Positions 24,085 through 62,014 are shown, counted from the first letter of the stretch. The stretch: 64,000 nucleotides of DNA from an uncultured Verrucomicrobiota bacterium (GCA_964482435.1 CAYZXL010000010.1:36946-100945); one strand, 5' to 3'. Translations and numbers: made by a program. The notes: generated by a model not told the origin, from the sequence alone.

Positions 24085-24671
24085 ACGAGCCGTCGGCTTT
24101 GCTGATAGTCATCGCGGCCATTTTCACGAACAACATCTTGCTGTCGAATTTCTTGGGAATGTGCTCGTTTCTGGTGTGCTCGCGGCAGATGGACAGCGCA
24201 ATCGGACTCGGAATGGCGGTTGTCTTCGTCATGACCTGCACGACGCCGCTGAACTACGCCATCTATTACGATCTGCTGGTCCCTCTGGGGATTCAGCACA
24301 TGGCGCTGATTGTGTTCATTGCAGTGATTGCCGCGTTCGTGCAATTCGTGGAAATGTTCGTCGAGCGGTTCACCCCGAAACTCTATTACTCCCTTGGGAT
24401 TTTCCTTCCGCTGATAACGGTGAACTGCGCGATTCTCGGAGCATGCCTGTTCATGCTGGTCCGGAATTACAACTTCGCTCAGGCAACAGGCTATGGGTTT
24501 GGGGCGGGTGTGGGCTGGGCGCTGGCAATTGTACTTATGGCCGGGCTGAGACAGAAGATGGGGTACAGCAACGTTCCGCGGCCGTTGCAGGGCGTGGCGA
24601 TTGTGATGATTATCACGGGCGTGATGGCGATGGCGTTTTTAGGATTTGCCGGAATGGTGGCCATTCAATAG
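24081..24671 (+). CDS. nqrE: Na+-NQR subunit E (NqrE/RnfA family)
   Basis: An ATG at 24081 begins MNEPSALLIVIAAIFTNNILLSNFLGMCSF, a typical NqrE/RnfA N-terminus. The ORF-track 374-aa frame upstream of this ATG overlaps nqrD and is not coding. Confidence 0.8.
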   Translation: MNEPSALLIVIAAIFTNNILLSNFLGMCSFLVCSRQMDSAIGLGMAVVFVMTCTTPLNYAIYYDLLVPLGIQHMALIVFIAVIAAFVQFVEMFVERFTPKLYYSLGIFLPLITVNCAILGACLFMLVRNYNFAQATGYGFGAGVGWALAIVLMAGLRQKMGYSNVPRPLQGVAIVMIITGVMAMAFLGFAGMVAIQ

Positions 24672-24678
24672 GCGGCGT

Positions 24679-25767: not shown

Positions 25768-25780
25768 GGAGGGCAGGAGA

Positions 25781-26233
25781 ATGGCGGTTGTTACAGTTGA
25801 GGACGTGCTCAGGCATGCAAGAGACTTCGAGCAAGCCATCGCGGACTTTTACTCGAGACTATCGCAGCAGACGAGTCTTGACGGTGTCCGATTGCTGGCG
25901 GATTACATGAGCCGACACCGGGCAAGGGTCGCGTGGGCCCTCGGCTGCCTTCCTTCGGAACACGTTCAGCGAATGTGTTCCGCGCCGCTGCGCTATGAGC
26001 CGCAGGGGGCGGACTGTCGGTGCTTCGAGCGGATAGAACTGCCTCCGGCCACGACGGCGGCAAGCGTCCTGGAAACCGCGGTGACGTTCAGCGAATGCCT
26101 GGTCAGGCTTTATCGGCAGGTTGTTCAGCAGCCACTGGACGAGGAGGTCAGGGAGTTCTTTGAGAGCTTCATCCGCCTCGAACATCGAGAAGAGATAGAG
26201 CTGAAGAAGATTCAGGCGATGGATTACTTTTAA
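25781..26233 (+). CDS. hypothetical protein immediately downstream of nqrF (possible NQR accessory factor)
   Basis: The 150-aa ORF starts 14 bp after the nqrF stop on the same strand. It contains five Cys, is predicted mainly helical and has no recognised motif. Confidence 0.45.
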   Translation: MAVVTVEDVLRHARDFEQAIADFYSRLSQQTSLDGVRLLADYMSRHRARVAWALGCLPSEHVQRMCSAPLRYEPQGADCRCFERIELPPATTAASVLETAVTFSECLVRLYRQVVQQPLDEEVREFFESFIRLEHREEIELKKIQAMDYF

Positions 26234-26487: not shown

Positions 26488-27753
26488 CTACTTCGCTTCG
26501 CGCTTCGTGATTTGCTTCATCTCCTCTTCGGTGAAGCGGCTGTTGGCGATTGGGCCAGGCTCCCAACACTGCTCGAGCTTACCAGGTTTCGGGGCCTCAA
26601 CAGAAATGACAAAGACTTCCTCGCCGCTCGCGTCCTTTTCAATTTTGCCGCCCGCTCGGTCAACTGCCTGGCGAACAAGCTTTTCGCAAACTTCAACCAG
26701 TCGCGGGAAGTTGTACGCCGTGTGGCTGAATACACCCTCGGGGTTCAACGCTGACTTGAATCGGTCGGGGAGCTTTGAGAAACCGATCGTCGTGAAAAGC
26801 ACTCCGCCGGCACTCGACGGGTTGCAGTCGGAATCCTGCCCGCACCGAGTGGAGATGATGATTGTCTGGTCGGGGTCGCGCTTCCCATAAAGCAACCCCA
26901 TGACGATGTACGCGCCGTTGAGTTTGGCGTCTATATTGAAATCGCCTTTCGGGCCGCTGCACGAGAATTTCCGGTAGTTGGGATTGAGGTGGTACTTCTT
27001 GTTGAGAAGGTCCCACGTCTTTTCCCAGTCGTCAGGATTTTCCTTATACCAGCGGAGGAGGTCGCGAATCGTCTCGGCGTACTGGCTTTTCTCAGGAATG
27101 CACTTGAGCGCCGCCTCGACGAGCTTCACCGGGTCGCTCTCGAAAAACGCCTCGGCATACATCCCTCCGACGAACTGCCCGCCATAAACTCCGTCGCCGT
27201 AATTCATGAGCCTTCCGAATTTCTCAGCGAGAGCGATTACCGTGTTCGGCAAGCCGGGCGCGATCAAGCCCGAGTAATCCGACTCAATCTGGTAGTCAAT
27301 GTCATCGGCGTGCTTGTTGAACTGAGGGTGACCGGAATCCGGTGGCGCGATGCCCTTTCGGAGATTGTCGCGGCCAGCCCTGTTCGCATGCCAGAGAGGA
27401 TAGCCGCTGTTCGCGAAATCAATCCCAGCCTGTCGAATAGGCACATCGAAACCGTACTGCTCGAGGGTGCGGACGAAGGTCATCTCGACGTAGATGTCGT
27501 CCTGCTGGAACTGGTTGACCATACCCGGCTCCCATTTCGGCATCTGCTCCTGTGGGAGGATTTTGTTTTGCGCTTTGAATTCCGTCGGGCCGCCCCATCC
27601 CACGCCAGCCATCTGCCCGAGCCAGCCAGCCTTCATTTTCTCCTGGTACTCGCGAACCGGAAGGCGACGGGATTTTTGCTCGCCCGCCGCATAACTCAGG
27701 CATACTCCCACGACAAGTCCGACCACTACGATGCTCGCGATGAACGTCCGCAT
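26488..27753 (-). CDS. secreted ADP-ribosylglycohydrolase-like family protein (divergent)
   Basis: The start at 27753 has a strong AGGAGG RBS, and a signal/TM peptide MRTFIASIVVVGLVVG follows. The N-terminal motif GVGWGGPTEF and C-terminal motif CGQDSDCNPSSAGGV resemble ARH signatures (GDALGxPxEF and GGDTDT), but the first Asp is replaced. Confidence 0.45.
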   Translation of the reverse strand: MRTFIASIVVVGLVVGVCLSYAAGEQKSRRLPVREYQEKMKAGWLGQMAGVGWGGPTEFKAQNKILPQEQMPKWEPGMVNQFQQDDIYVEMTFVRTLEQYGFDVPIRQAGIDFANSGYPLWHANRAGRDNLRKGIAPPDSGHPQFNKHADDIDYQIESDYSGLIAPGLPNTVIALAEKFGRLMNYGDGVYGGQFVGGMYAEAFFESDPVKLVEAALKCIPEKSQYAETIRDLLRWYKENPDDWEKTWDLLNKKYHLNPNYRKFSCSGPKGDFNIDAKLNGAYIVMGLLYGKRDPDQTIIISTRCGQDSDCNPSSAGGVLFTTIGFSKLPDRFKSALNPEGVFSHTAYNFPRLVEVCEKLVRQAVDRAGGKIEKDASGEEVFVISVEAPKPGKLEQCWEPGPIANSRFTEEEMKQITKREAK

Positions 27754-28026
27754 GGCAATTTCCTCCTGTGAGATATTAGGGTTTCCTTGAAGCCGCATCG
27801 CAACGGAAGACATCCTTGTCCAGTCGCTCGCGTAACGTTGCACGAGCCAAACTGCCGTAGCAGTATCTTAATACCCAGGTGCTGCGTCAAGGGCAAAACG
27901 AGCCTTGTTCCCGACGGGAAATGGCGAGACTCACGACGCCTTCGCCACTTCCACGACCGGCACGATGGCGGGAGAAGCGGTCTTTCCGATTGAGCGGCAT
28001 TGCGCAGTCATCCCGAGCGGGCGAGA

Positions 28027-29076
28027 TTACCCATCCGACTTTTCAGGGCCCACGGCCACAGCCGGGCTGTGTCCTCCGATGACCTCTTGCAAGAAGCCCA
28101 GTCCGTAAGCCACGTGAATGATGAGGAAGAGGACCGGCAGAATCGGAAAAAGCTTCCAGCCATGTTGGGCTGCAATCCTCCCGGAAGTGAAAAGCGAGAC
28201 TGCCCCGTAAAGCCCGAGAATTAACACGTATGGTATCCAGAGCCAGCCGACAAAGAGAGAAGCAATCAGACCAAGACTCGCGAAAAGGACAAACGCGGAC
28301 GGAACAAGGTGCTTGATGCTGAGACAATCGGGATGCTTCTTCACGGCCATGGCTCTGCCCCGTCCATATATGAAATACTGCTTGAAAAGCGCACGGATGG
28401 AATGCCGCGGATAGTAGGAGAACTTGATTTCAGGATTCATGTAGATTTTTCTGCCCGCCTTCACGATTCGCCAGTTCAGCTCATCGTCGTCGGCGAAAAT
28501 CATGTCTTCGTCGGCGAGACCGACCTCGTCGAAAATTCCTCGTCGGTAGGCGCCGAATTGCACCGTGTCGGTGAACTGTGGTTGCGTGGCGTAGCGATAG
28601 CGTGCAGTGCTGACGCCGAAACGTGACGAGAGGGCAAGCCCGATAGCTTTGCCGAGCAGCGTCTCGTGGCCCATTTGCACGACTCCCCCGACCACCGCCG
28701 CCTCCTTGACTTTCCGGAGGTTCTCGACGGAGGTTCTTATGAAGTCTCTGTCGAGCACGCCCCGGGTTCCGACGAAGATGATGACATCGCCCTTAGAGTC
28801 GCGAATCCCGACGTTGAGGGCGCAGCAGACGTAACGCTTCGGGTTGGAAAGGAGCCTGATGCGGGGGTTGTCCTTGACGAAGTTGCGAACAATTCCCGCC
28901 GAAGAGTCGCTTGACAGACCGTCCACAACGATGATTTCGACTCTGTCCGCAGGGTAATCCTGGGCGAGTATGGAATCAAGACAGCGCCCCACGTATGAGG
29001 CCGCATTGTACATCGGCACGATGACTGAAACGAATTCGTCGCTCATGCTAAACCTGCCCGGCTTAAGACCGCTCAC
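28027..29076 (-). CDS. family 2 glycosyltransferase with C-terminal TM helices
   Basis: The N-terminal GT-A fold motif VSVIVPMYNAASYVGRCLDSILAQ is followed by a DxD-like ADDDE motif and two C-terminal hydrophobic helices. Confidence 0.75.
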   Translation of the reverse strand: MSGLKPGRFSMSDEFVSVIVPMYNAASYVGRCLDSILAQDYPADRVEIIVVDGLSSDSSAGIVRNFVKDNPRIRLLSNPKRYVCCALNVGIRDSKGDVIIFVGTRGVLDRDFIRTSVENLRKVKEAAVVGGVVQMGHETLLGKAIGLALSSRFGVSTARYRYATQPQFTDTVQFGAYRRGIFDEVGLADEDMIFADDDELNWRIVKAGRKIYMNPEIKFSYYPRHSIRALFKQYFIYGRGRAMAVKKHPDCLSIKHLVPSAFVLFASLGLIASLFVGWLWIPYVLILGLYGAVSLFTSGRIAAQHGWKLFPILPVLFLIIHVAYGLGFLQEVIGGHSPAVAVGPEKSDG

Positions 29077-29927
29077 GATGACTTGTTTTCAGGAAGTAAC
29101 CCGCTCGAACGCGCCGGGCGAATGGAGCCCAGAAGGTGGCTTCGGAGAAACGGAATCTTCTCCAGAAAAAGGCCAAAAACCCAGCTCAGCGGCACGATTT
29201 GTCTCGCAAGCGGCGGAATAAGCGTGACGGGCCTCAACCTGACCGAACAGCCCGGAAAAAGCTGTTTGACTTCTTTCGTTTTCACGGGGCGAATCCCCGG
29301 GTTGCGTGGGTTATCCATGCGAAGGTCGTACCACAGGATCAACCCGCCCGGCTTGAGCACACGCAGCATCTCTGCGGCGACGGCTCGCCTCAGCTCACGC
29401 TTCAGCATCGTACTGAACGCCGTCATCTGTAAGACGATGTCGAAAGACCCGTCTTGCCACGGGAGTTTCGCTGCGTTTCCCACGCGGATGTCAGCCGCCG
29501 GCAGCCTCCTTGACGCGCGAGAAATCTCCACCTCGTCGAGGTCTATGCCGCTGAGTAAATGAGGCGAAGCGCCGCAAATCACGAGATAAAGAAGCCAATC
29601 GCCTGCGCCGCAGCCCACCTCCAGAATTCTCCGGTCGGCCAGGGGAATGGCGCCTTCCCTTCGCAGGACGGCGATGAGCGACCGCATCCGTTGAGTATAG
29701 ATGAAAAGGTTGGGCAGTCGCAGAAGCGAATAGAAGTCGCTTGCGATTTCTCTTCTTCGCCTCTCGTTGTGAGCAAGGATTTCCTGGATAGGGTGTGGCA
29801 AATCAGGCTGTTTCACGGGGTCGCCCATGCCCAATACTTGTTGCTCAGTCCCCGACTTCGCACGTCCGGTCAGGTATGCGAGACCGAGTGCCTCATTTTC
29901 AGACGATGAACGGGACGGACAGGACAT
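29073..29927 (-). CDS. class I SAM-dependent methyltransferase
   Basis: The protein has SAM-binding motif I ILEVGCGAGDW and motif II LKPGGLILWYD. The true start is possibly an internal Met. Confidence 0.7.
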   Translation of the reverse strand: MSCPSRSSSENEALGLAYLTGRAKSGTEQQVLGMGDPVKQPDLPHPIQEILAHNERRRREIASDFYSLLRLPNLFIYTQRMRSLIAVLRREGAIPLADRRILEVGCGAGDWLLYLVICGASPHLLSGIDLDEVEISRASRRLPAADIRVGNAAKLPWQDGSFDIVLQMTAFSTMLKRELRRAVAAEMLRVLKPGGLILWYDLRMDNPRNPGIRPVKTKEVKQLFPGCSVRLRPVTLIPPLARQIVPLSWVFGLFLEKIPFLRSHLLGSIRPARSSGLLPENKSS

Positions 29928-30538
29928 GCAAGCGAACGCGTCAGAACACCCCGGCGCCGCCGGAGACCGGGCAACGGACGCGACATCACCTCATCGCGTG
30001 ATTCCGTCCAGACAATGCGTTACCGGACTAACGAGTCATACTATTTGTTTCGTTGGCCTGAGTCTGACAACACATTACATTATGGCCGGTTGCCGGGCAA
30101 CGTGTTTCTCGCCGGTGGTGCGGCTACTTTTGAGTGGCGTGGTTCGTGGGTCCTGGGCCACTGGTCGCATGGCAGCTTGGAAGCGTAACGCCGCCGTCCC
30201 GGCGGCAGTCGTGAGGGCGTCCCGCCCTCGCACGGCAGCCAGCCCGACAATGTGTTTCACCTTGGCCGGGTTGAGCCGGGGGCAAGATGCCCCCGAGACA
30301 GCCGGCAAGATGCCGGCGGTACGCAGACCGACGCCACTCCCCACCAGTCCTTTGTTCCCTACGATTGCCGATCTGGTGCTTCGCCACTGAAAAAGAGCCA
30401 CACCCCTCGTCGGTAGCCGTTCGGGAATGGAGAAGGCAGAATTTGCGTGCGGTTGCTCCCCCGAATCTGTTTGTGGCACGGTCATTGGTGGAAACGCGGT
30501 GATGCAGTCCGCCATCACATTCCTTACAGTCTTTTCCG

Positions 30539-31687
30539 TTATCTTCGCAAGAGCGCACGGTATAAGCCAAGCAATTCCCTTTCCTCGCTCTGCCACGTGT
30601 AGCTTCTTTCGACCAGCTCCTTGCCTCTCTGTCCCATCTTTCTGGCCTCTTCGGGATGCTCGATGAGATAGACTATGGCATCCGCAACCTGTGGCACGTT
30701 CAGAGGGTCAACCAGCAGGCCGCATTCTCCCTCGCGGACAATCTTTCGGAAGAAGGGCAAGTCGGCCGCGATGACGGGAACGCCGCATGCCATCAGCTCG
30801 AAGAGCTTAATAGGCACAATCAGCTCGTGCATTGGCGCCGGATGATACAGCAACAATCCCGCTACTGCCCCGACGCAATAGGCAAAGACATCTTTGTGCG
30901 GAACCTGTCCGCGGTACTCGACGATGCCCTTTGCTTCACAGGAGGCAATCTCGGAGCGGAGCTCCTCATCCTCCACCGGCCCCAGAAGGCGAAGCCGCAC
31001 CGCAACCCTTTTGCCAGCGGCCTCTACCGACCTGAGCATCTCCCGTGCCCCGCGCGCGGAGTTGATTGTGCCGCAGTAAACGAGGAAGGGATAGGCAGAC
31101 AGAACGCTCGGCCTGGCTTTTGCGGCGGGATATATGTACTCAAGCATAGGATAATTATGGACGACCGTTCTAAACGGGATATGAGGTGAGTACTCTTGCG
31201 ATGGGACGATGACGCCCGACAGAAGGGGAGCTGCAAGACTTTCGAAAAGCCTGGCGAGTTTCGACAGGGCAACCTTGGCCCAATGCGGCAAATAGGGCTT
31301 CAGAAGAATGTCCTTGGGCAGGTCCTCGTGGGAATCGTAGATGACCTTCTTTCCAATCAGCCTCAGGAGCAACCCTGTGGGAATCAACTCAGGGTCGTGG
31401 AAGTGGAACAGGTCCCCGCCTTCCCGGAGAACCTTCCATATTACAGCGGTGGCGAGTAGGATCCTCCTGAACCTGGATGCTGGCCTGGCAAGCGATTTAA
31501 TGCGAACGCCGCTAATCGTCTCCTTCCGCGGATGGGATGCGAGAATTACTACGTTGTAGCCTGCCCGCGCGAGGCTCCGCGCCTCTTTGTGAAAAATGCG
31601 GTCGTCCGTCGCCTGATGCACGGTCGAGAAAATAACAACCTTGGGCCTGTCACCCTTTCGCTTCACGCGAGTCTCTCCAGAGAGCAA
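30539..31687 (-). CDS. family 4 (GT-B) glycosyltransferase
   Basis: The C-terminal GT4 region with an E-x7-E-like motif (PIKLFELMACGVPVIA) is preceded by a glycosyl-donor-binding domain. Confidence 0.75.
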   Translation of the reverse strand: MLSGETRVKRKGDRPKVVIFSTVHQATDDRIFHKEARSLARAGYNVVILASHPRKETISGVRIKSLARPASRFRRILLATAVIWKVLREGGDLFHFHDPELIPTGLLLRLIGKKVIYDSHEDLPKDILLKPYLPHWAKVALSKLARLFESLAAPLLSGVIVPSQEYSPHIPFRTVVHNYPMLEYIYPAAKARPSVLSAYPFLVYCGTINSARGAREMLRSVEAAGKRVAVRLRLLGPVEDEELRSEIASCEAKGIVEYRGQVPHKDVFAYCVGAVAGLLLYHPAPMHELIVPIKLFELMACGVPVIAADLPFFRKIVREGECGLLVDPLNVPQVADAIVYLIEHPEEARKMGQRGKELVERSYTWQSEERELLGLYRALLRR

Positions 31688-32609
31688 TTGCCTGTTTCAC
31701 CGGGACGATGCGCGCGCCATCAGCTTTTGCCTGAAGGATAATCTTCTCGTACAGGTCGCCCCAGTAGCGAGGAGCCGAGAAGCTGTGGGTGTGCCATAGG
31801 ACGGTGATTGCGCCGTGCCTTTCGCCCGCCTCGCGGATGAGTGCGGAAATTCTCCTCCACGCTTCAGAAGGGTCCATGTCCATCTTCGCCTGGTCGAGAA
31901 TTGGAGCGTCGTGAACGGGCAAAGGGAGAACGGTGAAAGGGTCACCGGCGAAGGGCCGGAAGGGGTCCTTCTTCCCTTCCGGCCACCCGATGATGTAGTT
32001 CGAGCCGAGGCTTGCGTCGTAGGCGTAGCCCGCCTGGCGAAGGATGCTCCATGAGTCCATTCCCTTGCTGTAGAACCAATGGGAGCGGTGGCCGATGTTC
32101 CTGTGGCCGAGGATTTCGGACATCATCCCGAATTCTCGGCGAGCCGCCTCGAGGTCCCGGTATGAATCAATTCCGTGGACTCCGATCTCCCACCCCTCCT
32201 CCTCGAGACGACAAAGCCTCTCTCGAAGACGCTCGATGAAGTAGTCCGCAGCCCTCCGCGTTGGGGCTTCTGCTCCGCGAGGTATCTTGCCCGGATTTCT
32301 CGCTTCGGGAATGAAAAAGATAGTCGAACGAACCCCGTGCCGTCTTTCGATGTCCAGCATCTTTCTGAAGGACTCTTCAATCGGGTCGGCCAGAATCCTT
32401 GCCTTGATTAACGGGACGCTCACGCCTGATAGGAGACCGTAGAGATACTGTCTGAGGGAAATTCGCCGCCGAAGGAGCCTCGCAACGTTTCCGAAGATGC
32501 ACCGGAAGACGTGCCCTCGCAGAGTCCGAGAATGCCAGGGAAGTTCCCGAACGGAAAGAAGGTCAACATCGTGCGTCAAGACGAGGATGTAGGGCGACTG
32601 ATTCGTCAT
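31650..32609 (-). CDS. polysaccharide deacetylase (NodB-like, CE4) family protein
   Basis: The protein has the motifs LTHDVD and His-rich IGVHG and WHTHSF, typical of carbohydrate esterase 4-like deacetylases. Confidence 0.65.
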   Translation of the reverse strand: MTNQSPYILVLTHDVDLLSVRELPWHSRTLRGHVFRCIFGNVARLLRRRISLRQYLYGLLSGVSVPLIKARILADPIEESFRKMLDIERRHGVRSTIFFIPEARNPGKIPRGAEAPTRRAADYFIERLRERLCRLEEEGWEIGVHGIDSYRDLEAARREFGMMSEILGHRNIGHRSHWFYSKGMDSWSILRQAGYAYDASLGSNYIIGWPEGKKDPFRPFAGDPFTVLPLPVHDAPILDQAKMDMDPSEAWRRISALIREAGERHGAITVLWHTHSFSAPRYWGDLYEKIILQAKADGARIVPVKQAIALWRDSREAKG

Positions 32610-33574
32610 AACTTCCCTAAGGCCGTCAGAACGACCCTCCCAAGAAGCGGAGCCTTGGTGATCAGACTATACGGCTGTTGCCTCGCACCGAACGCCCGGA
32701 AAAAGCGCTCCACCTGGGGGAGGCCCGACCCCTCAAAGTCGAAACCTTTAGTCCGGTCCCTTGCAAACCGGATCAGCCACCACAGCAGGAAAGCGTTTGC
32801 TCCGCTGTTGCGAAGTTCAGGGTCCCCCCCGGACACAAGGTCATAGGCATACTTCTTATCCCATGCGAGAAAGGCAGCAGCATGGCCGCGTCCATCCGGG
32901 TCTCTGGCGACGAAGCACTGTCCAGCGTTCCGCTCTTTGCATGCGCGAACGAGGGAAAAGAAAAGCTCTTGCGGGAAAGGCCGCTTCATCTTCTGGCGCT
33001 TGAAAGTCTTATCGCACAGGAGGAGGACTTCGGCCGGCTCAGCTCGTGAGACGGTCAATGGACGGCGCTCAGCCTTTCTTATGTCGGTGCGAACGTTCTC
33101 GCGCAGCCCGGCCCAAAGGGCGCCATCGTCCGAAATGTCGTCAAGAATGTACGTGAAAATGCTCGTCTGGCGGAAGCCCGCCCAGTAGAACGGAAGCCAA
33201 TTTGGGAGGCTGTGATGGAAACACTGAAAGAAGATTGGGATGTGGCGTAGATTGTCGGCGAGCGCTTTAAGGAGTTCCATCTCGCGCGAAAGGCGTGTCA
33301 CATATTTCCCCTCCATGGGCTCCAAAACCGGTCCCCATGACTGGCTCAACTTGGGCATCCGGCAGACCTTCACGAAGGCATACCGAGCAAAATGCAGCGG
33401 AATGCCCGCGACGAGCCGGCCGCCCCTGAAGCAGCCCAATATCCTGAAATTGTCGCCGCAGGAGGCTTTTATCCACCAGCTCTCGCAGAAAACACATCCC
33501 TGCGGAGAACGGTCCACGAGGCCGTCCCAATCCGCTATCTCATCGTCGGTTAAGAAGCGCACTTCCAGGCTCAC
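32606..33574 (-). CDS. FemAB-like/GNAT-fold acyl- or aminoacyl-transferase
   Basis: The 322-aa protein has an N-terminal DUF-like region and a C-terminal GNAT-like core. It overlaps both neighbours by 4 nt, indicating an operon. Confidence 0.55.
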   Translation of the reverse strand: MSLEVRFLTDDEIADWDGLVDRSPQGCVFCESWWIKASCGDNFRILGCFRGGRLVAGIPLHFARYAFVKVCRMPKLSQSWGPVLEPMEGKYVTRLSREMELLKALADNLRHIPIFFQCFHHSLPNWLPFYWAGFRQTSIFTYILDDISDDGALWAGLRENVRTDIRKAERRPLTVSRAEPAEVLLLCDKTFKRQKMKRPFPQELFFSLVRACKERNAGQCFVARDPDGRGHAAAFLAWDKKYAYDLVSGGDPELRNSGANAFLLWWLIRFARDRTKGFDFEGSGLPQVERFFRAFGARQQPYSLITKAPLLGRVVLTALGKL

Positions 33575-34584
33575 GGCTCACCCCGCCCTGCTGCGTTGAC
33601 TGGGTTCGGCTTTGCGGCAATGACTGCCAGCAAATGCGTCGCGAGGTCTTCGGGCAGAAAGCCTTTGAACCGGTCATTGACCCTCATGCGACGCAGCGCT
33701 CGCAGCGAGGGTTCGTCCACCCTGGGGTTCTTCCACAGAATGCGAAAGCCGGCCTGCGACATCATGTCAAGGAACTGCGAGGACCGCAGGCGGTTCTGGT
33801 ACTGAATCCTGTTTTGGCCGAGGATTCTCCACACGGCGTCAGAGTACTTCAGGAAATTGACCATGGAAATGGACTTGTCGAAGCCTGCGTAGTGATCCTG
33901 CAGGCCTATCCTGTGGTACATGAAGCCGGACGGCTTGAGAACCCGATGAGCTTCTCGAAGCAAGGCTTGCGCCACAGGTACGGGAACGTGCTCCAGCACC
34001 CCTCGTGTGAAAACAAGGTCCACGCTGCACGAACCCAGGCCCGTGCGAGTCGCATCCCCGGGGGCGATGTAGGCTATGCGTGCCGAGCGCATTAGCTCGC
34101 GCACACCGGCATGAAGCTTGAGCCCTCGCCGCCAATCCTCCAAACGGCTAACAGGAACGCCCGCCTTCCTGCTTATCTCATCGAACACTCGAACGAAGGC
34201 CCGCAGAGTAGTCAAAGCGAGTTGAGACGTTACGTGCTTTGTGATGTCGTAGGTAAGAACCTGGGCCGCACCGAGGGAGGAGAATAGAAGGGGCATCGTG
34301 GGATGCCAACCGGTGCCGACCTCAAGGACAATGCTCCCATCCACCCGGAAGCCTTGCTGCCGTAACGAAGCAATCATCTCGAGGCCCCACCTCGAAACGC
34401 CTGCGACCGACGTGTCTTTTCTGAAGCCGCCGACAGACCTCGACAGAAGAAAGTTGAGCTGCCGGCCTGCCGGCGCAACGGAGAGGATTGCCTGCAAGCC
34501 TGCTTTGAGTCTCCAGTCCATGACCAGGGTGATGATTCTCGCCTCGAGCGCCACACCCGAGCGATGTTGTCCGCCCTCCCACAC
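33571..34584 (-). CDS. class I SAM-dependent methyltransferase
   Basis: The protein has motif I VLEVGTGWH and motif II LKPSGFMYHR. The start is uncertain, possibly MDWRLKAG. Confidence 0.65.
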   Translation of the reverse strand: MWEGGQHRSGVALEARIITLVMDWRLKAGLQAILSVAPAGRQLNFLLSRSVGGFRKDTSVAGVSRWGLEMIASLRQQGFRVDGSIVLEVGTGWHPTMPLLFSSLGAAQVLTYDITKHVTSQLALTTLRAFVRVFDEISRKAGVPVSRLEDWRRGLKLHAGVRELMRSARIAYIAPGDATRTGLGSCSVDLVFTRGVLEHVPVPVAQALLREAHRVLKPSGFMYHRIGLQDHYAGFDKSISMVNFLKYSDAVWRILGQNRIQYQNRLRSSQFLDMMSQAGFRILWKNPRVDEPSLRALRRMRVNDRFKGFLPEDLATHLLAVIAAKPNPVNAAGRGEP

Positions 34585-34691
34585 AACTCACAGCCGAATG
34601 TAACACCCGCCCCGCCCGTCGTCAACTAAATAGCCTTCCGAGACTTGCGGTTTCTCCCCGGACCGTAGTTCGCCCTGGATCCACGCAGCGG

Positions 34692-35873
34692 CTACAGAAG
34701 CGAACGGTAAAGGCGCTGGGCCTGCGAAGCGTAATTCTCCCAGCGAAAAAGAGTCTCGATGCGTTTTCTCCCGGCTTTTCCCATGGAGAGGCGACGGTCT
34801 CGGTTCTCTGCAAGGGCGAGGGTTGCGGAGGCAAGTCCTTGCCAGTCCCCGACGGGAACGAGAAGTCCTGTCTCATTGTGAACGACCGCCTCCGGAATTC
34901 CCCCCACCGGCGTGGCTATGACCGGTAGCTCGCAAGCCATCGCCTCTAAGATGACGTTGGGCATGCCTTCGCTGTGCGACGGTAGAACGAGGACATCGCT
35001 TGCTTGCATCCAGCGGGCGACTTCGCTGCTCGGTCGTGCCCCGCACAAAAGCACCTTCGCCCCCATTGGGACAAACCTCCTCAGAAGCGGCCCTAATCCG
35101 ACGATGACGAGGAGAGAGCGGGGCAGAGCTTTTTCGACATGCGTCCATGCTCTTGCGAGCTCCTCAAGTCCCTTCTCCTGCGAAACTGTCCCGACGTACA
35201 GGGCTACAAAAGGTCTTTCCCGCATGCCGAACTCCTCCCGCAGGCTGCTCCTGCCGCTCGCGGGGGAAAATAGCTGCGTATCAACCCCTTTATAGAGAAC
35301 GGCTACTTCCCGCCGATTTCGCGACATGGAGGACATCTTCTCGGCGAGGTCTTCGCTGGTGGCGACAGGAGCGTCGCAGTTCTCGATGACGTGTCTGGTC
35401 AGGAGGAAATTCGCTCTCGATTCCCAGGGATAGACGTTCACGTCGCTTCCTCTCGCGTGACAGACGCACGGGAGACGGAACGCCCTCGAAAGCAGCACCG
35501 CGGCCATTCCGCACGGGAGCAATCCGTGGGCATGGATGAGGTCAAAAGGCTTTTGGCGCGACCACGACCGAAAAGAGACGTACAGGGAGGGGAACATCGC
35601 AAATGGGTCGCATTTGCGATAAAACGCTCCCGGGGGGCGAGGGTAACGCGGATAGCGTACCGGAATCCCGTCCCATTCATCTGACCGAGGCACCAGTCCT
35701 AAGTCCCTCCATTTTGACCTGTACCAGAGAAGGCGAGGGGAATATGGCAGAGGCGAAAGCACCCTCATGGCTATCCCCGACCGCTTCAAGGTCAGGCATT
35801 CGCGATGAACGAAAATGCCAGCGATTGGATCAGTCTTTCGGGGATACATGTCCGAAACAACCAGGATTCTCAC
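34692..35873 (-). CDS. family 4 (GT-B) glycosyltransferase
   Basis: The N-terminus MRILVVSDMYP is followed by a C-terminal GT4 signature (VLPSHSEGMPNVILEAMACELPVIAT). Confidence 0.8.
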   Translation of the reverse strand: MRILVVSDMYPRKTDPIAGIFVHRECLTLKRSGIAMRVLSPLPYSPRLLWYRSKWRDLGLVPRSDEWDGIPVRYPRYPRPPGAFYRKCDPFAMFPSLYVSFRSWSRQKPFDLIHAHGLLPCGMAAVLLSRAFRLPCVCHARGSDVNVYPWESRANFLLTRHVIENCDAPVATSEDLAEKMSSMSRNRREVAVLYKGVDTQLFSPASGRSSLREEFGMRERPFVALYVGTVSQEKGLEELARAWTHVEKALPRSLLVIVGLGPLLRRFVPMGAKVLLCGARPSSEVARWMQASDVLVLPSHSEGMPNVILEAMACELPVIATPVGGIPEAVVHNETGLLVPVGDWQGLASATLALAENRDRRLSMGKAGRKRIETLFRWENYASQAQRLYRSLL

Positions 35874-36228
35874 CGCTTCATCCTCTGTGGTTCCTGCAAT
35901 CCTACCGATTTATGGCACCGCGGCTTGCAGCCACACCCGTTCCGTTGGCGCGGCTGACAGCCCAAGCCAGGTCATCGTAACCGCCACGTGCGCGTCTCTC
36001 ACCGGGGCTAATTAGCCATCGGCTCGCTCTCGTTGGATGAGCCCAGATGCCACCGCGGCAGTACTTGACCGGTGATTCGCCAACGGCGAGCCCGTGCTGG
36101 ACCCGCGGAGAGTTTATCACGCTGCGAATTCCCCGTGAAAGTACAAAGGGGCACACCAGGGCGACCACGTTGTCGGGGGAACAGCGGGACCACACGGCAG
36201 AGCGCTCGCCCGGCGCTTAAGAGCGGGG

Positions 36229-37608
36229 TTAAACACGGCAGATGGCGAACCTCCTTTTGCCGGAGGCAGTGGGTGGGAAATCGGTAGTCTGTTCGAATGA
36301 GACTCTCGTGTCCTCACCGAGAACGGACTTCAGGACCCGTGTGAGCAATTCCCTGTTTTCCTCGGTGAGAGCGGGCGAGGGGGTGTGTCGAAGAGTAATA
36401 GCCCCGATCTGGTCCTGACAGAGTTGGAATTCATCTATAGGTATGCGGGTTCGCTGAAGGAGATACGTCGCCAGGACCCCGGAGACCCTGAAGCCGTCGG
36501 TTCGATAGAAAAACTCGTTCACCCGGCCATCGAGGCGAAGGATGCGACGAAACGGAAGCCCAAGGCTTGCATCTGGCTCTCCGATGCAGCCTGCGTCCCC
36601 GTTACGGTATCGGAGCAGAGGAAAAGCCCTGTTGTCTAAATCCGTTATCACAAATTCGCCGGTGCCGGTAGCAGAGATACGGCCGTCTTCGCCGAGGACT
36701 TCGATGACAACGTGGTCTTCGGGGATGCAGTGAGGCAGCCCGGGGCCGGGGCGGTGGCCAAGTGCCATGATTTCCCGACATCCATAGTAATCCATAACGT
36801 CTGCCCCCGTCACCTCCTTAATCTTGTCTGCCCAGTGCGGATGAAGCACTTCGGCCGTAGGATAGACTCCCGTCAGCGCCAAACTCACTCCGGCTTTCTG
36901 GAGGTAGTCGCAGAAAAGAAACCAGGCAGAGCAATACCCCATCCCGTACCGGATGCCTTTGCGTCGGCACATTTTCGCCACAGCGACTGCTGTTCGAGAG
37001 TCGAGTTCAAAGGCAGGGAATGGGTACACACGGTTGAGACGCCGAATCAAACGGTCCTTGAGGCCAGTCTTGCCTAACCCGAGGCTTCCCCCGTAGAACC
37101 CTAACGTCGGAAAACCTGTCTTGTACCCGGACCAGGAAAGACCGCGAAGGTGGCAAGCCTCCTGAACGAAGGTCGTCCACCTATCGCAGAGCACGGTGAC
37201 GGGCTGGCCGGTTGTTCCGCCGGTGGTGCGGGAGTCGGGCTGTAGAGAAGCCACCTCGTCGGAAAGAAGCTCTTTGTAACGATGCTGCACGATTTCTCTG
37301 GTCAGCAGGGGAATCGAAGAGAGGTCTTCCAGCCCACTGAAAGTCTGCGGCGACACACCTATTCGACGAAACAACTCGCGATAGTATGGAACGTGCTCAT
37401 AGCAGTACCTCGCAAGGCCAACAAGCTTGCGGTCGCGGTATGCCTTCAGCTCTTCTATGGACATTCGTTGCGCGGCATCAACCTCCAGGAGGAGGTGCTC
37501 GAGCCGAACTCGCCACTTGCGCGCAGCAAGTCGCGCTAGTAGTTCCGGGATTAGTCCCGAGTAATAGGCCTGTACAGGATTTCTCAGTCTGCGAGAGCTT
37601 TGTCTCAT
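36229..37608 (-). CDS. CapK/PaaK-like adenylate-forming enzyme (phenylacetate-CoA ligase / F390 synthetase family)
   Basis: The protein has the AMP-binding-like motif SRTTGGTTGQP and the family's C-terminal domain. The start is taken at MRQSSRRL with a GGGGAGGTG RBS. Confidence 0.7.
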   Translation of the reverse strand: MRQSSRRLRNPVQAYYSGLIPELLARLAARKWRVRLEHLLLEVDAAQRMSIEELKAYRDRKLVGLARYCYEHVPYYRELFRRIGVSPQTFSGLEDLSSIPLLTREIVQHRYKELLSDEVASLQPDSRTTGGTTGQPVTVLCDRWTTFVQEACHLRGLSWSGYKTGFPTLGFYGGSLGLGKTGLKDRLIRRLNRVYPFPAFELDSRTAVAVAKMCRRKGIRYGMGYCSAWFLFCDYLQKAGVSLALTGVYPTAEVLHPHWADKIKEVTGADVMDYYGCREIMALGHRPGPGLPHCIPEDHVVIEVLGEDGRISATGTGEFVITDLDNRAFPLLRYRNGDAGCIGEPDASLGLPFRRILRLDGRVNEFFYRTDGFRVSGVLATYLLQRTRIPIDEFQLCQDQIGAITLRHTPSPALTEENRELLTRVLKSVLGEDTRVSFEQTTDFPPTASGKRRFAICRV

Positions 37609-38262
37609 CTGCGGCACCTCCCCACCTCTGAGGTCAATGCCAGGGCACCTCAATGGGTTGGACATGTTCTTAACAGGCTTCCTGAGGCGATGTCAAGAAA
37701 TGTCGTCGGAAGGGGAAGCCTACGTTTGAGTGGTGCATCTTGTGTCTTTGAGGGCGCCAATGCGGCGACGGATTCGAACTGATGAATCAGAAATCGCCTG
37801 CCCCCGGGTGGGTCTGCGTTGAGCCGGTTCTTCATCCAGGGAGTGTCTGACCTTTGCGCGCCGAACTCTCTCGGGCAACAACGTCTTTCCCTCGGAGGAC
37901 CGTACTCCTAAGGGCGGCGGCTGCAAAAACAACGCCACGCTACTCGTGCCGGCGCCGAGCACGATTGCGGGTCTCGCGCGCGGACGGGCGGCGCGGGTCC
38001 GGCTTTTCCTGTAAAGCGATATGGGCCGTCGAACTGTTTCGACCGAGGGGTTCCCGCTGCGTCTTTCTGCGGCGCCTCGACCAAAACGGGGTTGACTTTT
38101 GTTCCCTGGGTGGCCGAATATGCCGCCGGAACCTATTCCGATGCCAGGGACGTTGGTTCAGCTGAGCGCGAGTTCCTCCGCGCGGTCGCCGGTTGGTGGC
38201 GAGCAAGCGTGGCTGGTTTTTCTGCTGAACCTGAAAAGAAGGGGGCAGACGAGAGCGATTCA

Positions 38263-38550
38263 ATGGCGACCTGTGATCGAAACAACTCAACACTCGGACG
38301 AATTCTCCTGAAAGCGCTAAGCTCAGTGAAGCTCGCCGTCAGTCTTCTATCGCTCATAGCTCTGGTTCTGATCGTCGCAACCTTAATCAGAAATCAGGAC
38401 CACGCCCGGCGGTACATCTACCACTCCTGGTGGTTCATTTCCCTGCTTGGCCTCTTGTGTCTCAAGCTTCTTGTGTGCGTAGCGGGGCGACGGTCTCTTA
38501 AACTGAAAAAGCTGGGGACAAGGGTGACCCGAGCCGCTGGCAGAGGTTAA
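38263..38550 (+). CDS. stand-alone ResB N-terminal fragment (first TM helix plus YHSWWF motif)
   Basis: The 96-aa ORF LGRILLKALSSVKLAVSLLSLIALVLIVATLIRNQ...YIYHSWWFISLLGLLCLKLLVC reproduces the canonical ResB/Ccs1 N-terminus. It ends 2 bp before the next gene, which contains a diverged second copy of the same segment. Confidence 0.5.
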   Translation: MATCDRNNSTLGRILLKALSSVKLAVSLLSLIALVLIVATLIRNQDHARRYIYHSWWFISLLGLLCLKLLVCVAGRRSLKLKKLGTRVTRAAGRG

Positions 38551-38551
38551 G

Positions 38552-41500
38552 ATGCCCGAGGAGCAACAAAAAGGACGGCAGAAACGCGCAGCTCAGAGGG
38601 AGGCATGGGGTATGGCGGCCCCAAGGTTTTCCAAAGGCGAGGCAGTTCGGTTCGGATGGAAGACGGCGAAGCGCAATGTGGGGTTTTTTGCGGGCCTCAC
38701 TATCTTAGTCGGGATCACCCACGTTACTCCCTGGCTTATCACGGCTGCGGCCCGACAGGATGCGGGGCTTCTCCCTCGTATTGTCAGCGTCGCTTCATGG
38801 CTACCACAAATCGTGGTGCAGATGGGGGTCATGAGAATCGCCTTAAGATTCTGCGACGGCGCGAGGGGCGCACTTAGCGATTTATTCTCCTGTTTTCCTC
38901 TGTACTTCAGATATGTACTTGGTTCGAATCTATACGCGCTGATATGTTTCGGGGTGCCGTTCTGGGCATATCTACTTAGTCCGATTCTACTCGTGGCGGC
39001 GCTTTTGTTATTTGCCATCCCCGGCATTATCTGGTCAATGAAATACCAGTTCTTTGGGTATTTCATCGTTGACAGGGGAGTCCCTGCCGTGAAAGCACTT
39101 CGCGCAAGCGCGAGGATCACCAGGGGCGCTAAGCGGGAGTTGTTCGAGTTCGCTATATTGCTCGTCCTTATCAACATTCTCGGGGCCCTGTGCCTGGGCA
39201 TCGGTCTCTTTGTGACGGTCCCGCTATCGCTGCTTGCTCATGCCTTCGTGTATCGAAAGTTGCTGGCGGCTACGGAAGGTGTTCGAACAGCAGAGACCCT
39301 TGAGGCCGTTCGACCCCGTGAATCAGTACTAAGAGTGCTCGGCTCGGTGCAGCTAACCGTCACGCTCTCGTTTCTCGTAGCCGTGGCGCTGATGGTTGCA
39401 ACCCTCATCGAGAATCAGGCTCAGGCTGGTCGCAATATTTACCATTCCTGGTGGTTTATTTCGCTGCTCGGGCTTTTCTGTCTCAATCTTCTTCTCTGCA
39501 CGGCAGGGCGATGGTCCTTCAGAGCGAAGAAGATCGGGATAACTGTTGCCCACGCAGGCGTCCTGGTCATGGTCGTCGGAGTGGTCATCGGCGCCATCTG
39601 GGGGCAGCGAGGCTCCGTTCAACTCTACATCGGCCAGGCGGACGATATTTGGTACCTCGAAAATAACAAGAAGATGAAGCTCCCCTTCGTCGTTTATCTC
39701 AAATACTTTAAGGTGCAACGCTATGTTCGTGAAAGGCTTGTGGTTTACGTGGTGGACCGCAACCTCGTCCGCTCTTTCCCGATGGAAGTCGGCAAGAGCT
39801 TCAGGGTTGCCGGGACGCCGTATTCCGTGACGACCCTGCGCTACGAGCCAGACTTCGTTGTTCTCGGCAAAGGGGGTTTCGGGAGCCGCTCCAGCGAGCC
39901 AAAAAATCCAGCAGTCCAGGTTCGCGTCGAGGACGGGTCAGACAACAAGACACTGTGGGTCTTCGCAAAAGCCCCCGGCATGCACCAGGACCCGGATTCC
40001 AACGTCCGCCTCCTTTATCAGCGGGTCGAAGAAAGGATCAAGAATTTCAAATCAAAGGTCCTGCTCCTGGGCGAGAAGGTCGTCCTTGTCGTGGATGACA
40101 GGCCCGTGGAGACGGGGTACTGGGGGCTCAGTCACCCTGTTTTCAGTCCGGATGGCAGGCACGTCGCATACAAGGGTTCGGGTACAGACGGCGCATGGGA
40201 GTGCGTAGTAGTGGACGGACAGCCCGGACCGAGATACGAAGCGCTTGGCCCCAGGCCTCCCGTGTTTCATGGGGACGGTACCCTGGAATATCTGGCCTTC
40301 GGAGACGGGGTGGTCTACCGCGTTAAACACATCCCGCAAGCTAAGAGCCCGCCGGAAAAGAGGTCTCCACCCGTCGGCAAGGAAACTGGCACCGGACGCC
40401 GCAGCATTTTTGAGGAACGTACTACTCCGCCCGTCACCTCCTCGCAAAGAACAGCGCCCCTCGCTAGCAAAACAACCCCTACCCGCCGGTCGAGCCTCTT
40501 CCATGACGAGCCCACTTCCGGCCGCACCGTTGCCGTCGCACAGGCCGCGTACCAGGTCGAGGAGGAGAAGGTCGGGACAATTGACCGCTCGGCATTTGAC
40601 CACGCCAAGTTCAGCGGGGATGGATTGCACATCGCCTACCGGGTGGACAAGGATGGTAGGTGGATGGTCGCATTGGATGGGAAGGCAGGCCCCGACTTCC
40701 AATGTGCCGGACTCTCGGGGGAGTATTTCTGTGAGCGGCTTTTAGCCCTCAGTTCGGACGCAAAGCGGTTGGCGTACGCCGCCGTGGAGGCTGGCAAGAC
40801 ATTCGTGGTTATGGACGGCAGGCCGGGACCCGCGTATGACGACGTTCAGGACGTCACCCTCAGCGCGGATGGAAGGCGTGTCGCATATGTCGCCAAGAGG
40901 GGCAACAAGTCGTTCGTGGTCGTTGATGAGCAAGCCGGCCCAGAGCTCGACGAGATTAGAGACCCGGCCTTCAGTCCCGACGGGGCGCGATTTGCCTACA
41001 AGGGCAGAGTGCTGGGCGAGCAGACATACGTACTCGCCGTGGACGGCAGACCAAGGCCTGAGCTGGGCGCTGTTTCTGATTTTGTCTTCAGCCCCGACGG
41101 AAAACGAATGGCGTATGTGGCCGAGAAAAATTCCAACCGGTTTGTGGTACTCGATGGACAAGGCGGTCCGGAGTTCAGCAACATCGAGGATTTGATGTTT
41201 AGCGCGGACGGCAAGCGCTTCGCGTACGTCGGTGAGCGTGTAAGTAAAGGTGCGAGAGAAACGATCCTGGTTGTGGATGGGACTTTGATACGGGGCGTCG
41301 GCGTTTACCCCCGGCAAACCTTCAGCGCGGATGGTAAGCGCCTGGCCTACGCAGCCCCCAGCGGCGACGGGTGTCGTGTCATGCTGGACGGCAAGCCGGG
41401 CCCTGTGTATTTTGACGTGCTGGACCTCACTTTCAGTCCTGACGGGAGGCGACTCGCGTACTGCGCCAGAGAGATCCTCGCCTCCAAGACGATTGAAGTC

Positions 41501-59598: not shown

Positions 59599-59658
59599 AC
59601 GGATGATGCGCCTCCTCCGCAGGAGGCGCGAGGCAGTGGCCAGTACCGACAAGGGAGG

Positions 59659-60804: not shown

Positions 60805-60832
60805 GGCGCTCTCCGAACGGGAATGACGCGAA

Positions 60833-61888: not shown

Positions 61889-62014
61889 GGCGCGTGAGAA
61901 ACGCGCCGCTGGAGGACTCTTCGAGTCATGGGCAGTCAGATATTGTCGCCAGATGTTCATACATGGTAAGCTATAGCTCAAGTGGTTTGACAATCAAACA
62001 GGGAGGTTTTCGGT

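Follow-up and report, generated by a model that had tools for sequence, protein, structure and literature searches.

The window analysed here is a stretch of 64,000 nucleotides from an uncultured Verrucomicrobiota bacterium (GCA_964482435.1 CAYZXL010000010.1:36946-100945), and positions 28027-37608 of it were found to contain a cluster of eight genes whose assignment to glycan assembly and decoration is supported by the analysis. An earlier note, made from the sequence alone, had described eight co-oriented genes there, and eight minus-strand open reading frames (ORFs) were recovered (Table 1). All eight of its family calls were reproduced as well, and none was reassigned by domain, PDB or fold searches. 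In the direction of transcription the cluster was found to contain the gene of a CapK/PaaK-like enzyme, followed by those of the glycosyltransferase GT4b, the methyltransferase MT2, a Fem-like transferase, a CE4-like protein, the glycosyltransferase GT4a, the methyltransferase MT1 and the glycosyltransferase GT2, which is the reverse of the order in which they had been listed. Overlaps of 4 bp were present at the MT2/Fem, Fem/CE4 and MT1/GT2 junctions, and the CE4-like gene and GT4a overlap by 17-38 bp. Spacers were found at the remaining three junctions, of 355 bp from the CapK-like gene to GT4b, 107 bp from GT4b to MT2 and 611 bp from GT4a to MT1. The mostly overlapping stops and starts reported before were thus confirmed for four of the seven junctions, whereas the 355-bp spacer had been passed over. 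The window has a G+C content of about 58%, and the GC of its real genes at codon positions 1/2/3 is about 0.61/0.42/0.70.

Table 1. Features of the glycan cluster, positions counted from the first nucleotide of the window
Feature	Position	Strand	Basis or remark
CapK/PaaK-like adenylate-forming enzyme	36229..37608	-	459 aa; PaaK alignment, CapK_C annotation
Non-coding spacer, 355 bp	35874..36228		between CapK-like gene and GT4b
GT4b glycosyltransferase, TuaC-like	34692..35873	-	Pfam Glycos_transf_1
MT2, class I S-adenosylmethionine (SAM) methyltransferase	33571..34584	-	Pfam Methyltransf_11/23/25
FemX-like tandem-GNAT transferase	32606..33574	-	Pfam PF13480 Acetyltransf_6 and fold
CE4-fold (NodB-type) hydrolase, divergent, putative cytoplasmic de-N-acetylase	31650..32609	-	fold match
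GT4a glycosyltransferase	30539..31687	-	Pfam Glycos_transf_1, Glyco_transf_4
Miniature inverted-repeat transposable element (MITE), 289 bp, within the 611-bp gap	30117..30405		empty site in sister strain L026
Target-site duplication, left copy CTCGCCGGT	30108..30116		8/9 match to right copy
Target-site duplication, right copy CTCGTCGGT	30406..30414		8/9 match to left copy
AT-richer patch, native spacer upstream of MT1	30000..30090		GC 0.43-0.47
MT1, class I SAM methyltransferase	29073..29927	-	Pfam Methyltransf_25
GT2 glycosyltransferase, C-terminal membrane segments	28027..29076	-	Pfam Glycos_transf_2

In GT4b, the Pfam domains Glycos_transf_1 (1.1e-34) and Glyco_trans_4_4 were found. Its best NCBIfam match was to TuaC (teichuronic-acid), with 193 bits over the full length against a cut-off of 550 bits, and orthologues of 62-68% identity were present in the related loci L001, L008 and L023 (Table 2). 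GT4a was found to contain Glycos_transf_1 (3.1e-17) and Glyco_transf_4; its true start is probably at 31666, giving 375 aa, and 375 aa is also the length of the gene calls on Logan contigs. The orthologues of GT4a lie directly downstream of the CE4-like gene in L008 and L023. In L001 (15216-19407) GT4a was found as a tandem duplicate with copies 63% and 61% identical to the window protein; they are separated by a 32-aa piece of the MT1 N-terminus and by a further GT4-like gene. MT2 was absent from L001 and L008, and the order methyltransferase-Fem-CE4 recurs in the distant L022. MT1 was found to contain Methyltransf_25 (5.6e-17), and its true start is probably Met34 at 29828; the orthologues align only from residue 35-38 on, and MT1 of the sister strain L026 was called at 251 aa. 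GT2 contained Glycos_transf_2 (2.4e-23) and hydrophobic segments at about residues 254-334, and it is the only protein of the cluster with membrane segments, the Fem-like and CE4-like proteins having none. The MT1-GT2 pair is kept in L001.

The ORF of the CapK-like enzyme is open to 37665, and the start at 37608 is favoured by the database version and by a GGAGG Shine-Dalgarno sequence. The protein was aligned over its full length with the phenylacetate-CoA ligase PaaK (2y4o; residues 45-457, E 1.2e-16) at an identity of about 25%. The adenylation motifs were found to be kept, with the P-loop TTGGTTGQP (compared with SSGTTGKP), YGCRE (compared with YGLSE) and RYRNGD, and so was the C-terminal catalytic lysine (A10, SGK), which is present in TASGKRR in the window protein and in TATGKAR in PaaK. 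The PaaK equivalog cut-offs of NCBIfam were not reached (TIGR02155, 59.7 against 646 bits; NF041878, 70.5 against 700 bits), and because the score lies far under every one of them the protein is, as judged from its sequence, a PaaK-like ANL enzyme and not PaaK itself; it differs from PaaK also in standing in a glycan context and not in phenylacetate catabolism. The domain PF27533 (CapK_C) was assigned by precomputed annotation only and is "weak" for the window protein, whereas the L026 version (97% identical) and the protein P0008 carry it without this mark (E<=1e-5); the model is missing from the local Pfam copy, in which the CapK-like protein had no match. The best NCBIfam matches of two proteins of the cluster were to the DVU_1553 family of AMP-dependent ligases (CapK-like protein, 77 bits) and the DVU_1556 family of methyltransferases (MT1, 55 bits). 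These two families come from one Desulfovibrio neighbourhood; both matches are far under cut-off and may be a coincidence.

CapK-like genes are common in capsule and exopolysaccharide (EPS) loci. Two fusions of a glycosyltransferase with a CapK-like domain were found, one in the protein P0013, with a GT4 domain, and one in a 738-aa "glycosyltransferase" of the Roseobacter litoralis plasmid pROLI127 (L024, 8146-10362), whose neighbourhood, an XrtD EPS locus, encodes a nucleotide-sugar dehydrogenase and a transferase of the WecB/TagA family. The fusions tie CapK-like enzymes to a glycan-building step. The only CapK-like protein studied genetically is VpsH of Vibrio cholerae, for which genetic evidence indicates a requirement in the addition of glycine to lipid-linked GulNAcA, giving an amide at the uronic-acid carboxyl (PMC13463779). 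VpsH is PaaK-like and CapK-annotated, lies inside a Wzx/Wzy glycan locus with GT4 enzymes and acts at the cytoplasmic face on a lipid-linked intermediate. Its link with the window protein rests on the shared annotation, and the two contexts differ in that no uronic-acid synthesis gene or UDP-sugar dehydrogenase is present in the window. The earlier note had also proposed a comparison with the capK of the cap5/cap8 loci. Cap5K/Cap8K is a flippase, and the name CapK for PaaK-like proteins comes from the type-1 capsule locus, whose CapK may add taurine; the comparison is probably off target.

The AlphaFold2 (AF2) model of the CE4-like protein has a pLDDT of 93.5, and its Foldseek matches were polysaccharide deacetylases, PuuE, HP0310 and the lipid-linked-sugar deformylase ArnD (E 3.5e-9 to 1e-7, TM-score about 0.6). 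The PDB entries matched were 3rxz, 3cl6 (PuuE), 3qbu, 1z7a and 8t0j (ArnD), and the model is accordingly predicted to have the deformed (beta/alpha) barrel of the NodB fold. Among 39 sequences of the family the residues H13, D14, H145, H177 and H273 were invariant and D16 was near-invariant; these residues of the alignment are candidates for the Asp-His-His metal site and the catalytic Asp/His. The N-terminus (MTNQSPYILVLTHDVD) was found to be without a hydrophobic signal-like segment, and since a transmembrane segment is missing too, the protein should act in the cytoplasm on a precursor and not on the exported polymer. In the sister strain L026 the CE4-like gene (10960-11919) contains an in-frame TAG at codon 251, which is Trp in the window. 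The codon would truncate the protein ahead of the invariant Trp272-His273, and it may represent a recent inactivation, with the gene a pseudogene, or a sequencing error.

The Fem-like protein was found to contain PF13480 (Acetyltransf_6; E 6.9e-14, 52.7 bits against a cut-off of 22), and PF02388 (FemAB) was also present on many of its homologues of 45-54% identity. Its AF2 model has a pLDDT of 94.9, and the top Foldseek matches in the PDB were Sbb17/Sba18 with streptothrisamine, FemX, FemA and MprF (E 1e-16 to 1e-12, TM-score about 0.7), so the model and Foldseek together indicate a tandem-GNAT fold. The best structural matches were Sbb17/Sba18 (TM-score 0.72/0.80, E about 1e-16), with a sequence identity of about 20%, and the family profile matched FemX (6snr) at 2.5e-5. 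As far as the model tells, the nearest solved folds are all aminoacyl-tRNA-dependent enzymes, some of which act on an amino sugar. A related tandem-GNAT enzyme, Orf11, transfers glycine from Gly-tRNA onto the amino-sugar amine of streptothrisamine (PMC12945691). The likeness of the window protein to the Orf11/Sba18/Sbb17 group lies in the structural match and in the amino-sugar amine that is proposed as its acceptor, whereas the group belongs to actinomycete secondary metabolism (streptothricin-type, BD-12), uses a soluble small-molecule acceptor and has the Lys of the RFK motif that is Phe in the window family.

The block was found to be modular, of the form [CapK] [GT4b] [MT2-Fem-CE4-GT4a] [MT1-GT2], when it was compared with related loci (Table 2). 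The nearest named relative is a Verrucomicrobiota metagenome-assembled genome (L001), in which CapK is 69% and GT2 75% identical. Of seven independent contexts, five (the window, L008, L022, L023 and L009) have the CE4-like and Fem-like genes side by side. The CapK orthologues of 35-69% identity were found in loci without a Fem-like or CE4-like gene (L001, L006 and L007), and the Fem/CE4 pair was found without CapK within 7-9 kb in L008, L022 and L023. By gene content, CapK and the Fem/CE4 pair assort independently and appear as two modules. A Wzy_C gene lies directly upstream of GT4b in all three close relatives (L001, L008 and L023), and a Wzx gene is also present in the locus of L001. Fusions of a GNAT (Acetyltransf_1) with the CE4-like domain were found in the protein P0149 and in L023 (9034-10854), and a fusion of MT1 with a GNAT in L008 (13584-15008); they hint at coupled steps, notably where a deacetylase-like domain is joined to an acetyl- or acyltransferase.

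Table 2. Gene content of related loci (percentages, identity to the window protein; MT, methyltransferase; double colons, fusions)
Locus	Genes	Absent
L001	LPG_synthase_TM, three GT4s, Wzx, MT, GT4, CapK, Wzy_C, GT4b, MT, GT4a, GT4-like, GT4a', MT1, GT2	no Fem/CE4
L008	Wzy_C, GT4b (68%), Fem (71%), CE4 (64%), GT4a, GT4a', MT1::GNAT	no CapK within 9 kb
L023	Wzy_C, GT4b, Fem, Fem, GNAT::CE4, GT4a; separate trio of DegT, Polysacc_deac_1 and Fem	no CapK
L022	MT, Fem (39%), CE4 (40%)	no CapK
L009	UDP-sugar dehydrogenase, Fem (48%), 498-aa protein with CE4-like domain	no CapK
L021	lone CE4-like gene next to Wzy_C and GT4 genes	no CapK
L010	lone Fem-like gene	no CapK
L007	CapK (35%); nonulosonic-acid/Wzm-Wzt/Wzy_C locus	no Fem/CE4
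L006	CapK (68%); next to TylF-type methyltransferase and MFS transporter	no Fem/CE4

On balance we favour, with moderate confidence, a reading in which the cluster encodes the cytoplasmic steps, assembly and tailoring, of a pathway of Wzx/Wzy type for a surface glycan (O-antigen-, EPS- or capsule-like), the CapK-like enzyme works independently of the Fem/CE4 pair, and the 611-bp gap consists of a native spacer and a strain-specific MITE. In such a pathway GT4b, GT4a and the membrane-anchored GT2 would extend a lipid-linked oligosaccharide, and priming, flipping and polymerisation or ligation would be encoded in other parts of the genome. On an intermediate linked to a lipid or a nucleotide, the cytoplasmic CE4-fold enzyme would free an amino sugar of its N-acyl group, which is probably acetyl, and the freed amine would then be re-acylated by the translationally coupled FemX-like enzyme. 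Its donor would most likely be the amino acid of an aminoacyl-tRNA, which is favoured because of the structural neighbours of the Fem-like model and Orf11, and possibly an acyl-CoA. Methyl groups would be added to the glycan, or to the new substituent, by the two SAM methyltransferases. Working independently, the CapK/PaaK-like enzyme would adenylate a carboxylate, most plausibly that of a sugar acid on the intermediate, and then amidate it with an amino acid or amine, as has been proposed for VpsH.

Several observations weigh against this reading. In the Fem-like family the Lys that is canonical for the C-terminal Fem motif "(R)FK..FG" (Lys305 of W. viridescens FemX) was found to be missing: the profile is ieRFfRaFG against INRFKLGFG in Sba18, and the Lys position is occupied by Phe292 followed by a near-invariant Arg293. 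The missing Lys weakens the case for an aminoacyl-tRNA donor and leaves an acyl-CoA donor open. The CE4-like protein scored under the Pfam cut-offs (DUF2334, 23.5 against 26 bits; Polysacc_deac_1, 16.5 against 23.1 bits) and under those of NCBIfam too, and its gene would be dispensable in L026 if the TAG is real. A literature search on the NCBIfam deacetylase model VimE gave papers on vimentin and HDAC only. The CapK orthologue of L006 (68%) does not lie in a glycan locus. Moreover, no priming phosphoglycosyl transferase, Wzx, Wzy, exporter, UDP-sugar dehydrogenase, aminotransferase or sugar-nucleotide gene was found by Pfam scans of the 64-kb window; because those genes are missing, a lipid-linked polysaccharide and a uronic-acid substrate are suggested by the relatives only. 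A complete Wzx/Wzy locus was likewise not found within the window, and we infer the type of pathway for this genome.

A more specific version, in which the CE4/Fem pair, recurrent in Wzy-type loci from several uncultured lineages, uses aminoacyl-tRNA to aminoacylate an amino sugar that has been de-N-acetylated on an intermediate of a lipid-linked glycan, and in which CapK carboxyl amidation and two methylations are added, would give a doubly amino-acid-decorated, possibly zwitterionic glycan; it is tentative and we regard it as doubtful. To our knowledge, the tRNA-dependent attachment of an amino acid to an amino sugar has to date been demonstrated for a small-molecule antibiotic alone and for no bacterial polysaccharide. 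Every component of the cluster comes from a described family, and the combination of a deacetylase, a Fem-like protein and GT4 enzymes is known from PEP-CTERM EPS loci and from the holdfast. In the Caulobacter holdfast, the Fem-like HfsK has been proposed to acylate amines exposed by the deacetylase HfsH (PMC5362036). In both systems a cytoplasmic deacetylase, putative in the window, is joined by a Fem-like N-acyltransferase; the holdfast enzymes act, and those of the window would act, on precursors of a Wzy-type polysaccharide, whereas HfsK binds c-di-GMP and its gene is not adjacent to hfsH, and the genes of the window pair overlap by 4 bp. The PEP-CTERM/XrtA EPS loci contain a FemAB-like protein, a polysaccharide deacetylase and several GT4s (stp1-3), and their NCBIfam models were among the matches of the window proteins. 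The scores of the window proteins were however low (TIGR03019 FemAB, 25.8 against 260 bits; TIGR03006 deacetylase, 17.6 against 276 bits), no exosortase was found in the Pfam scans of the window and no PEP-CTERM protein is present in it; from these sequences the cluster does not qualify as a PEP-CTERM system.

The earlier note had joined the three enzymes in one pathway. Spelled out, the CE4-like protein would de-N-acetylate an amino sugar, the CapK/PaaK-like enzyme would make an acyl-AMP or acyl-CoA of a free organic or amino acid, and the Fem-like GNAT would transfer the acyl group to the amine. The idea of deacetylation and re-acylation is reasonable for the CE4/Fem pair, whereas a place of the adenylating enzyme in the same pathway is not supported, its orthologues and the pair being found in separate loci. 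The coupled scheme is unlikely as a whole, although the three genes are present in one co-oriented block, acyl-CoA thioesters are products of PaaK-family enzymes and the typical donors of GNATs, and the Phe in place of the Fem Lys would allow such a donor. Set against these points are the CapK orthologues without Fem/CE4 and the Fem/CE4 pairs without CapK, the position of the 355-bp spacer, GT4b and MT2 between the CapK-like gene and the pair in the window, the aminoacyl-tRNA use of all the nearest solved folds of the Fem-like model, and the genetics of VpsH, which indicate a sugar-carboxyl amidation and hence a reaction different from the coupled scheme.

The acceptor could instead be a glycolipid, a protein O-glycan, the core of lipopolysaccharide or peptidoglycan precursors, the Fem-like protein in the last case adding a bridge amino acid and the CE4-like protein being a peptidoglycan deacetylase. 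The earlier note had reported no Wzx, Wzy or ABC exporter, and Pfam scans of essentially all plausible genes found none in the window; a cryptic Wzy among the ORFs without a Pfam match was rejected, none of them being a multi-pass membrane protein. The 355-bp spacer was found at the position that is occupied in relatives by the Wzy_C gene, between CapK and GT4b in L001. It is gap-free in the alignment to the sister strain, its ORF at 35902-36195 is non-coding-like (GC at codon position 2 of 0.61), and no Wzy or Wzx remnants were found by tblastn in the 355-bp and 611-bp spacers at E<=0.01; on this comparison Wzy_C appears to have been lost at its ancestral position in the window. The missing Wzx, Wzy and priming transferase in the 64 kb and the missing Wzy_C agree with another acceptor, as does the action of characterised Fem proteins on lipid II; Pfam Wzy_C also spans WaaL ligases and O-oligosaccharyltransferases. 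This explanation is nevertheless quite unlikely, since the orthologous blocks of three relatives lie in Wzy_C loci, that of L001 also with Wzx, the CE4-like protein is predicted to be cytoplasmic with its gene amid GT4 genes, and no mur or pbp genes were found nearby in the Pfam scans.

The sister strain L026 (JGI contig) was found to be about 96% identical over the whole region, with the same gene order. The ratio of nonsynonymous to synonymous substitution rates (dN/dS) against L026 was 0.11-0.35 for all eight genes, including 0.19 for the CapK-like, 0.11 for the Fem-like and 0.11 for the CE4-like gene, and 0.09-0.27 for three of four flanking genes (ADP-ribosylglycohydrolase, NqrF and CcsA); the fourth flanking ORF (150 aa, five substitutions) gave 1.2, which is uninformative. 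Because the values of the cluster are comparable to those of the flanking genes, purifying selection acts on all eight genes, which are intact. That the block is what is left of a larger glycan locus in decay, having lost Wzx/Wzy, been hit by the MITE and ceased to make a product, is very unlikely: the loss of Wzy_C from its ancestral position, the insertion between GT4a and MT1 and the nonsense codon that L026 has in its CE4-like gene would fit it, whereas all eight ORFs are intact, their dN/dS values are like those of neighbouring housekeeping genes, and the MITE is intergenic and interrupts no ORF.

The gap between GT4a and MT1 (29928-30538) was found to be non-coding, as the earlier note had held. 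Its longest ORF has codon-position GC of 0.63/0.57/0.63, unlike the real genes, and protein-coding ORFs were rejected on this measure and by the lack of any Pfam or NCBIfam match. The AT-richer patch that had been pointed out is also real, with GC of 0.43-0.47 at 30000-30089 against 0.70-0.77 at 30150-30330, and it is about 97% conserved in L026. A reading of the gap as a dedicated 5' untranslated region (UTR) or regulatory region did not survive, about half of the gap being a mobile-element insertion absent from the sister strain. At this site L026 is short of exactly 298 nt, that is, 289 nt plus a 9-bp duplication; its empty site contains ACCGGCGAG once, whereas the window element is flanked by CTCGCCGGT and CTCGTCGGT, which match at 8/9 positions (about 1e-4 by chance for 8/9 or better). 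At its ends the element has inverted repeats of about 21 bp, which match at 17/21 positions and start with GGTG (GGTG(C/T)GGCTAC). Homologues were found in unrelated intergenic contexts, as four copies at three other loci (L006/L014 and L019): L006/L014 contains one full and one internally deleted copy, and the L019 copy is 79% identical over 294 nt with flanks that match at 7/9 positions. In L006 (2246-3543; ENA ERZ27247683 k141_3676346, the same as L014) two direct copies bracket an 85-aa ORF (orf85), hicA and hicB; the outer 9 nt of the pair match at 8/9 positions (TTTCTGACG and TTTGTGACG) and the inner flanks at 1/9, an arrangement that suggests a composite transposon with toxin-antitoxin cargo.

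Given the inverted ends, the 9-bp target duplication, the other copies and the empty site of L026, the element at 30117-30405 is identified from sequence comparison as a non-coding, multi-copy MITE with an empty/filled-site pair. It resembles the MITEs derived from insertion sequences (IS) with 9-bp duplications in being short, non-coding and multi-copy, in its terminal inverted repeats and in the composite arrangement bracketing cargo; its ends may resemble those of IS1, as in derivatives of the IS1 family. Neither the window nor the surroundings of the other copies yielded a transposase, no parent IS was found in the sequences examined, and the element had no match in plasmids, phages or viral contigs; among its metagenome pattern matches, 8 of 10 were an unrelated gene end. 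Three independent Logan assemblies of the same organism end inside the element, in the G+C-rich core of the gap. Perfect hairpins of 7-8 bp are crowded in this core, with four in a span of 130 bp, compared with about 0.25 per kb in the rest of the window. The native spacer between GT4a and MT1 is about 313 bp long, and with Met34 as the start of MT1 it would measure about 412 bp.

That the element is a functional structured RNA, either a cis-regulatory leader or a small RNA of the glycan operon, is highly improbable, for in spite of the dense hairpins and a closed multi-hairpin RNAalifold fold with some compensatory changes on both strands, it is missing from the same spacer of a 96%-identical strain, carries a 9-bp target duplication, has copies in unrelated contexts including the pair around hicAB with matching outer flanks, lacks an Rfam match, and lies in a gap that folds no better than shuffles (611 nt, z = -0.92), the two strands of the element giving consensus folds of about the same quality, as a DNA palindrome should. 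A structured 5' UTR was rejected on the same z value, and a CsrA-type (GGA-loop) or riboswitch-like hairpin array was dropped after the empty site of L026 had shown the insertion. Rfam gave nothing on the whole window at gathering thresholds and nothing on 29800-30700 at E<=1, and ARAGORN found no tRNA or tmRNA. Scans for consensus promoters and terminators over 27700-38200 gave site counts at the level of shuffled sequence; in the gap no sigma-70-like site and no sense-strand terminator-like site were found, and a single antisense terminator-like site was present at 30089-30101. The split into two transcription units that the earlier note had placed at the gap is neither borne out nor contradicted by these scans; the insertion may be polar on MT1-GT2, or these two genes may be served by a promoter of their own in the AT-richer patch. 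Within the cluster, the sequence most like a sigma-70 promoter, TTGACG-17-TACATT with an extended TG, was found at 34597-34625 in the 107-bp spacer before MT2. It fits an MT2-Fem-CE4-GT4a sub-operon; such matches occur in the region only at chance number.

The genes flanking the cluster were found to be unrelated to glycan synthesis. On one side an NQR operon (20277-26233) and an ADP-ribosylglycohydrolase gene are present, and on the other a TetR-RND efflux set and genes of cytochrome c biogenesis (ResB/CcsA); elsewhere the window was found to contain HPr kinase, a V-type ATPase operon, ParB, CorA and genes of sugar-oxidoreductase type. At 38092-41737 a 1061-aa ResB-like protein with inserted PD40/WD40-like beta-propeller repeats is encoded, for which the gene call in the sister strain is 374 aa. 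It is preceded by a 152-aa ORF, the C-terminal part of which shows 65% identity over 48 aa (tblastn) to sequence from within the ResB-like protein, which suggests a partial duplication. At 59398-61993 the plus strand contains the genes of a 244-aa protein, an aldo/keto-reductase-like protein with a twin-arginine (TAT) signal and a multihaem cytochrome fusion, the fused part of which resembles, judged by eye, a 3-keto-disaccharide-hydrolase-like domain. Two minus-strand ORFs there (303 and 421 aa), with no Pfam match and an odd codon-position GC, were set aside as antisense artefacts.

The cluster reveals no new kind of system. Its useful points are the recurrent tight pairing of the CE4-like and Fem-like genes, the separability of CapK, the loss of Wzy_C and the insertion of the MITE. 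The latter teaches that a large gap inside an operon should be checked for a mobile-element insertion before it is read as regulatory, and short-read assemblies of the lineage are broken by the 289-bp element as well. For FemAB-like proteins of EPS loci (PEP-CTERM, HfsK), and for CapK-like ligases with the genetics of VpsH, the cluster offers a compact, translationally coupled deacetylase/Fem-like pair that is under purifying selection and separable from CapK, and with it a sharpened hypothesis of de-N-acetylation followed by tRNA- or CoA-dependent re-acylation, apart from carboxyl amidation. If true, a tRNA-dependent aminoacylation of a polysaccharide amino sugar would be noteworthy.

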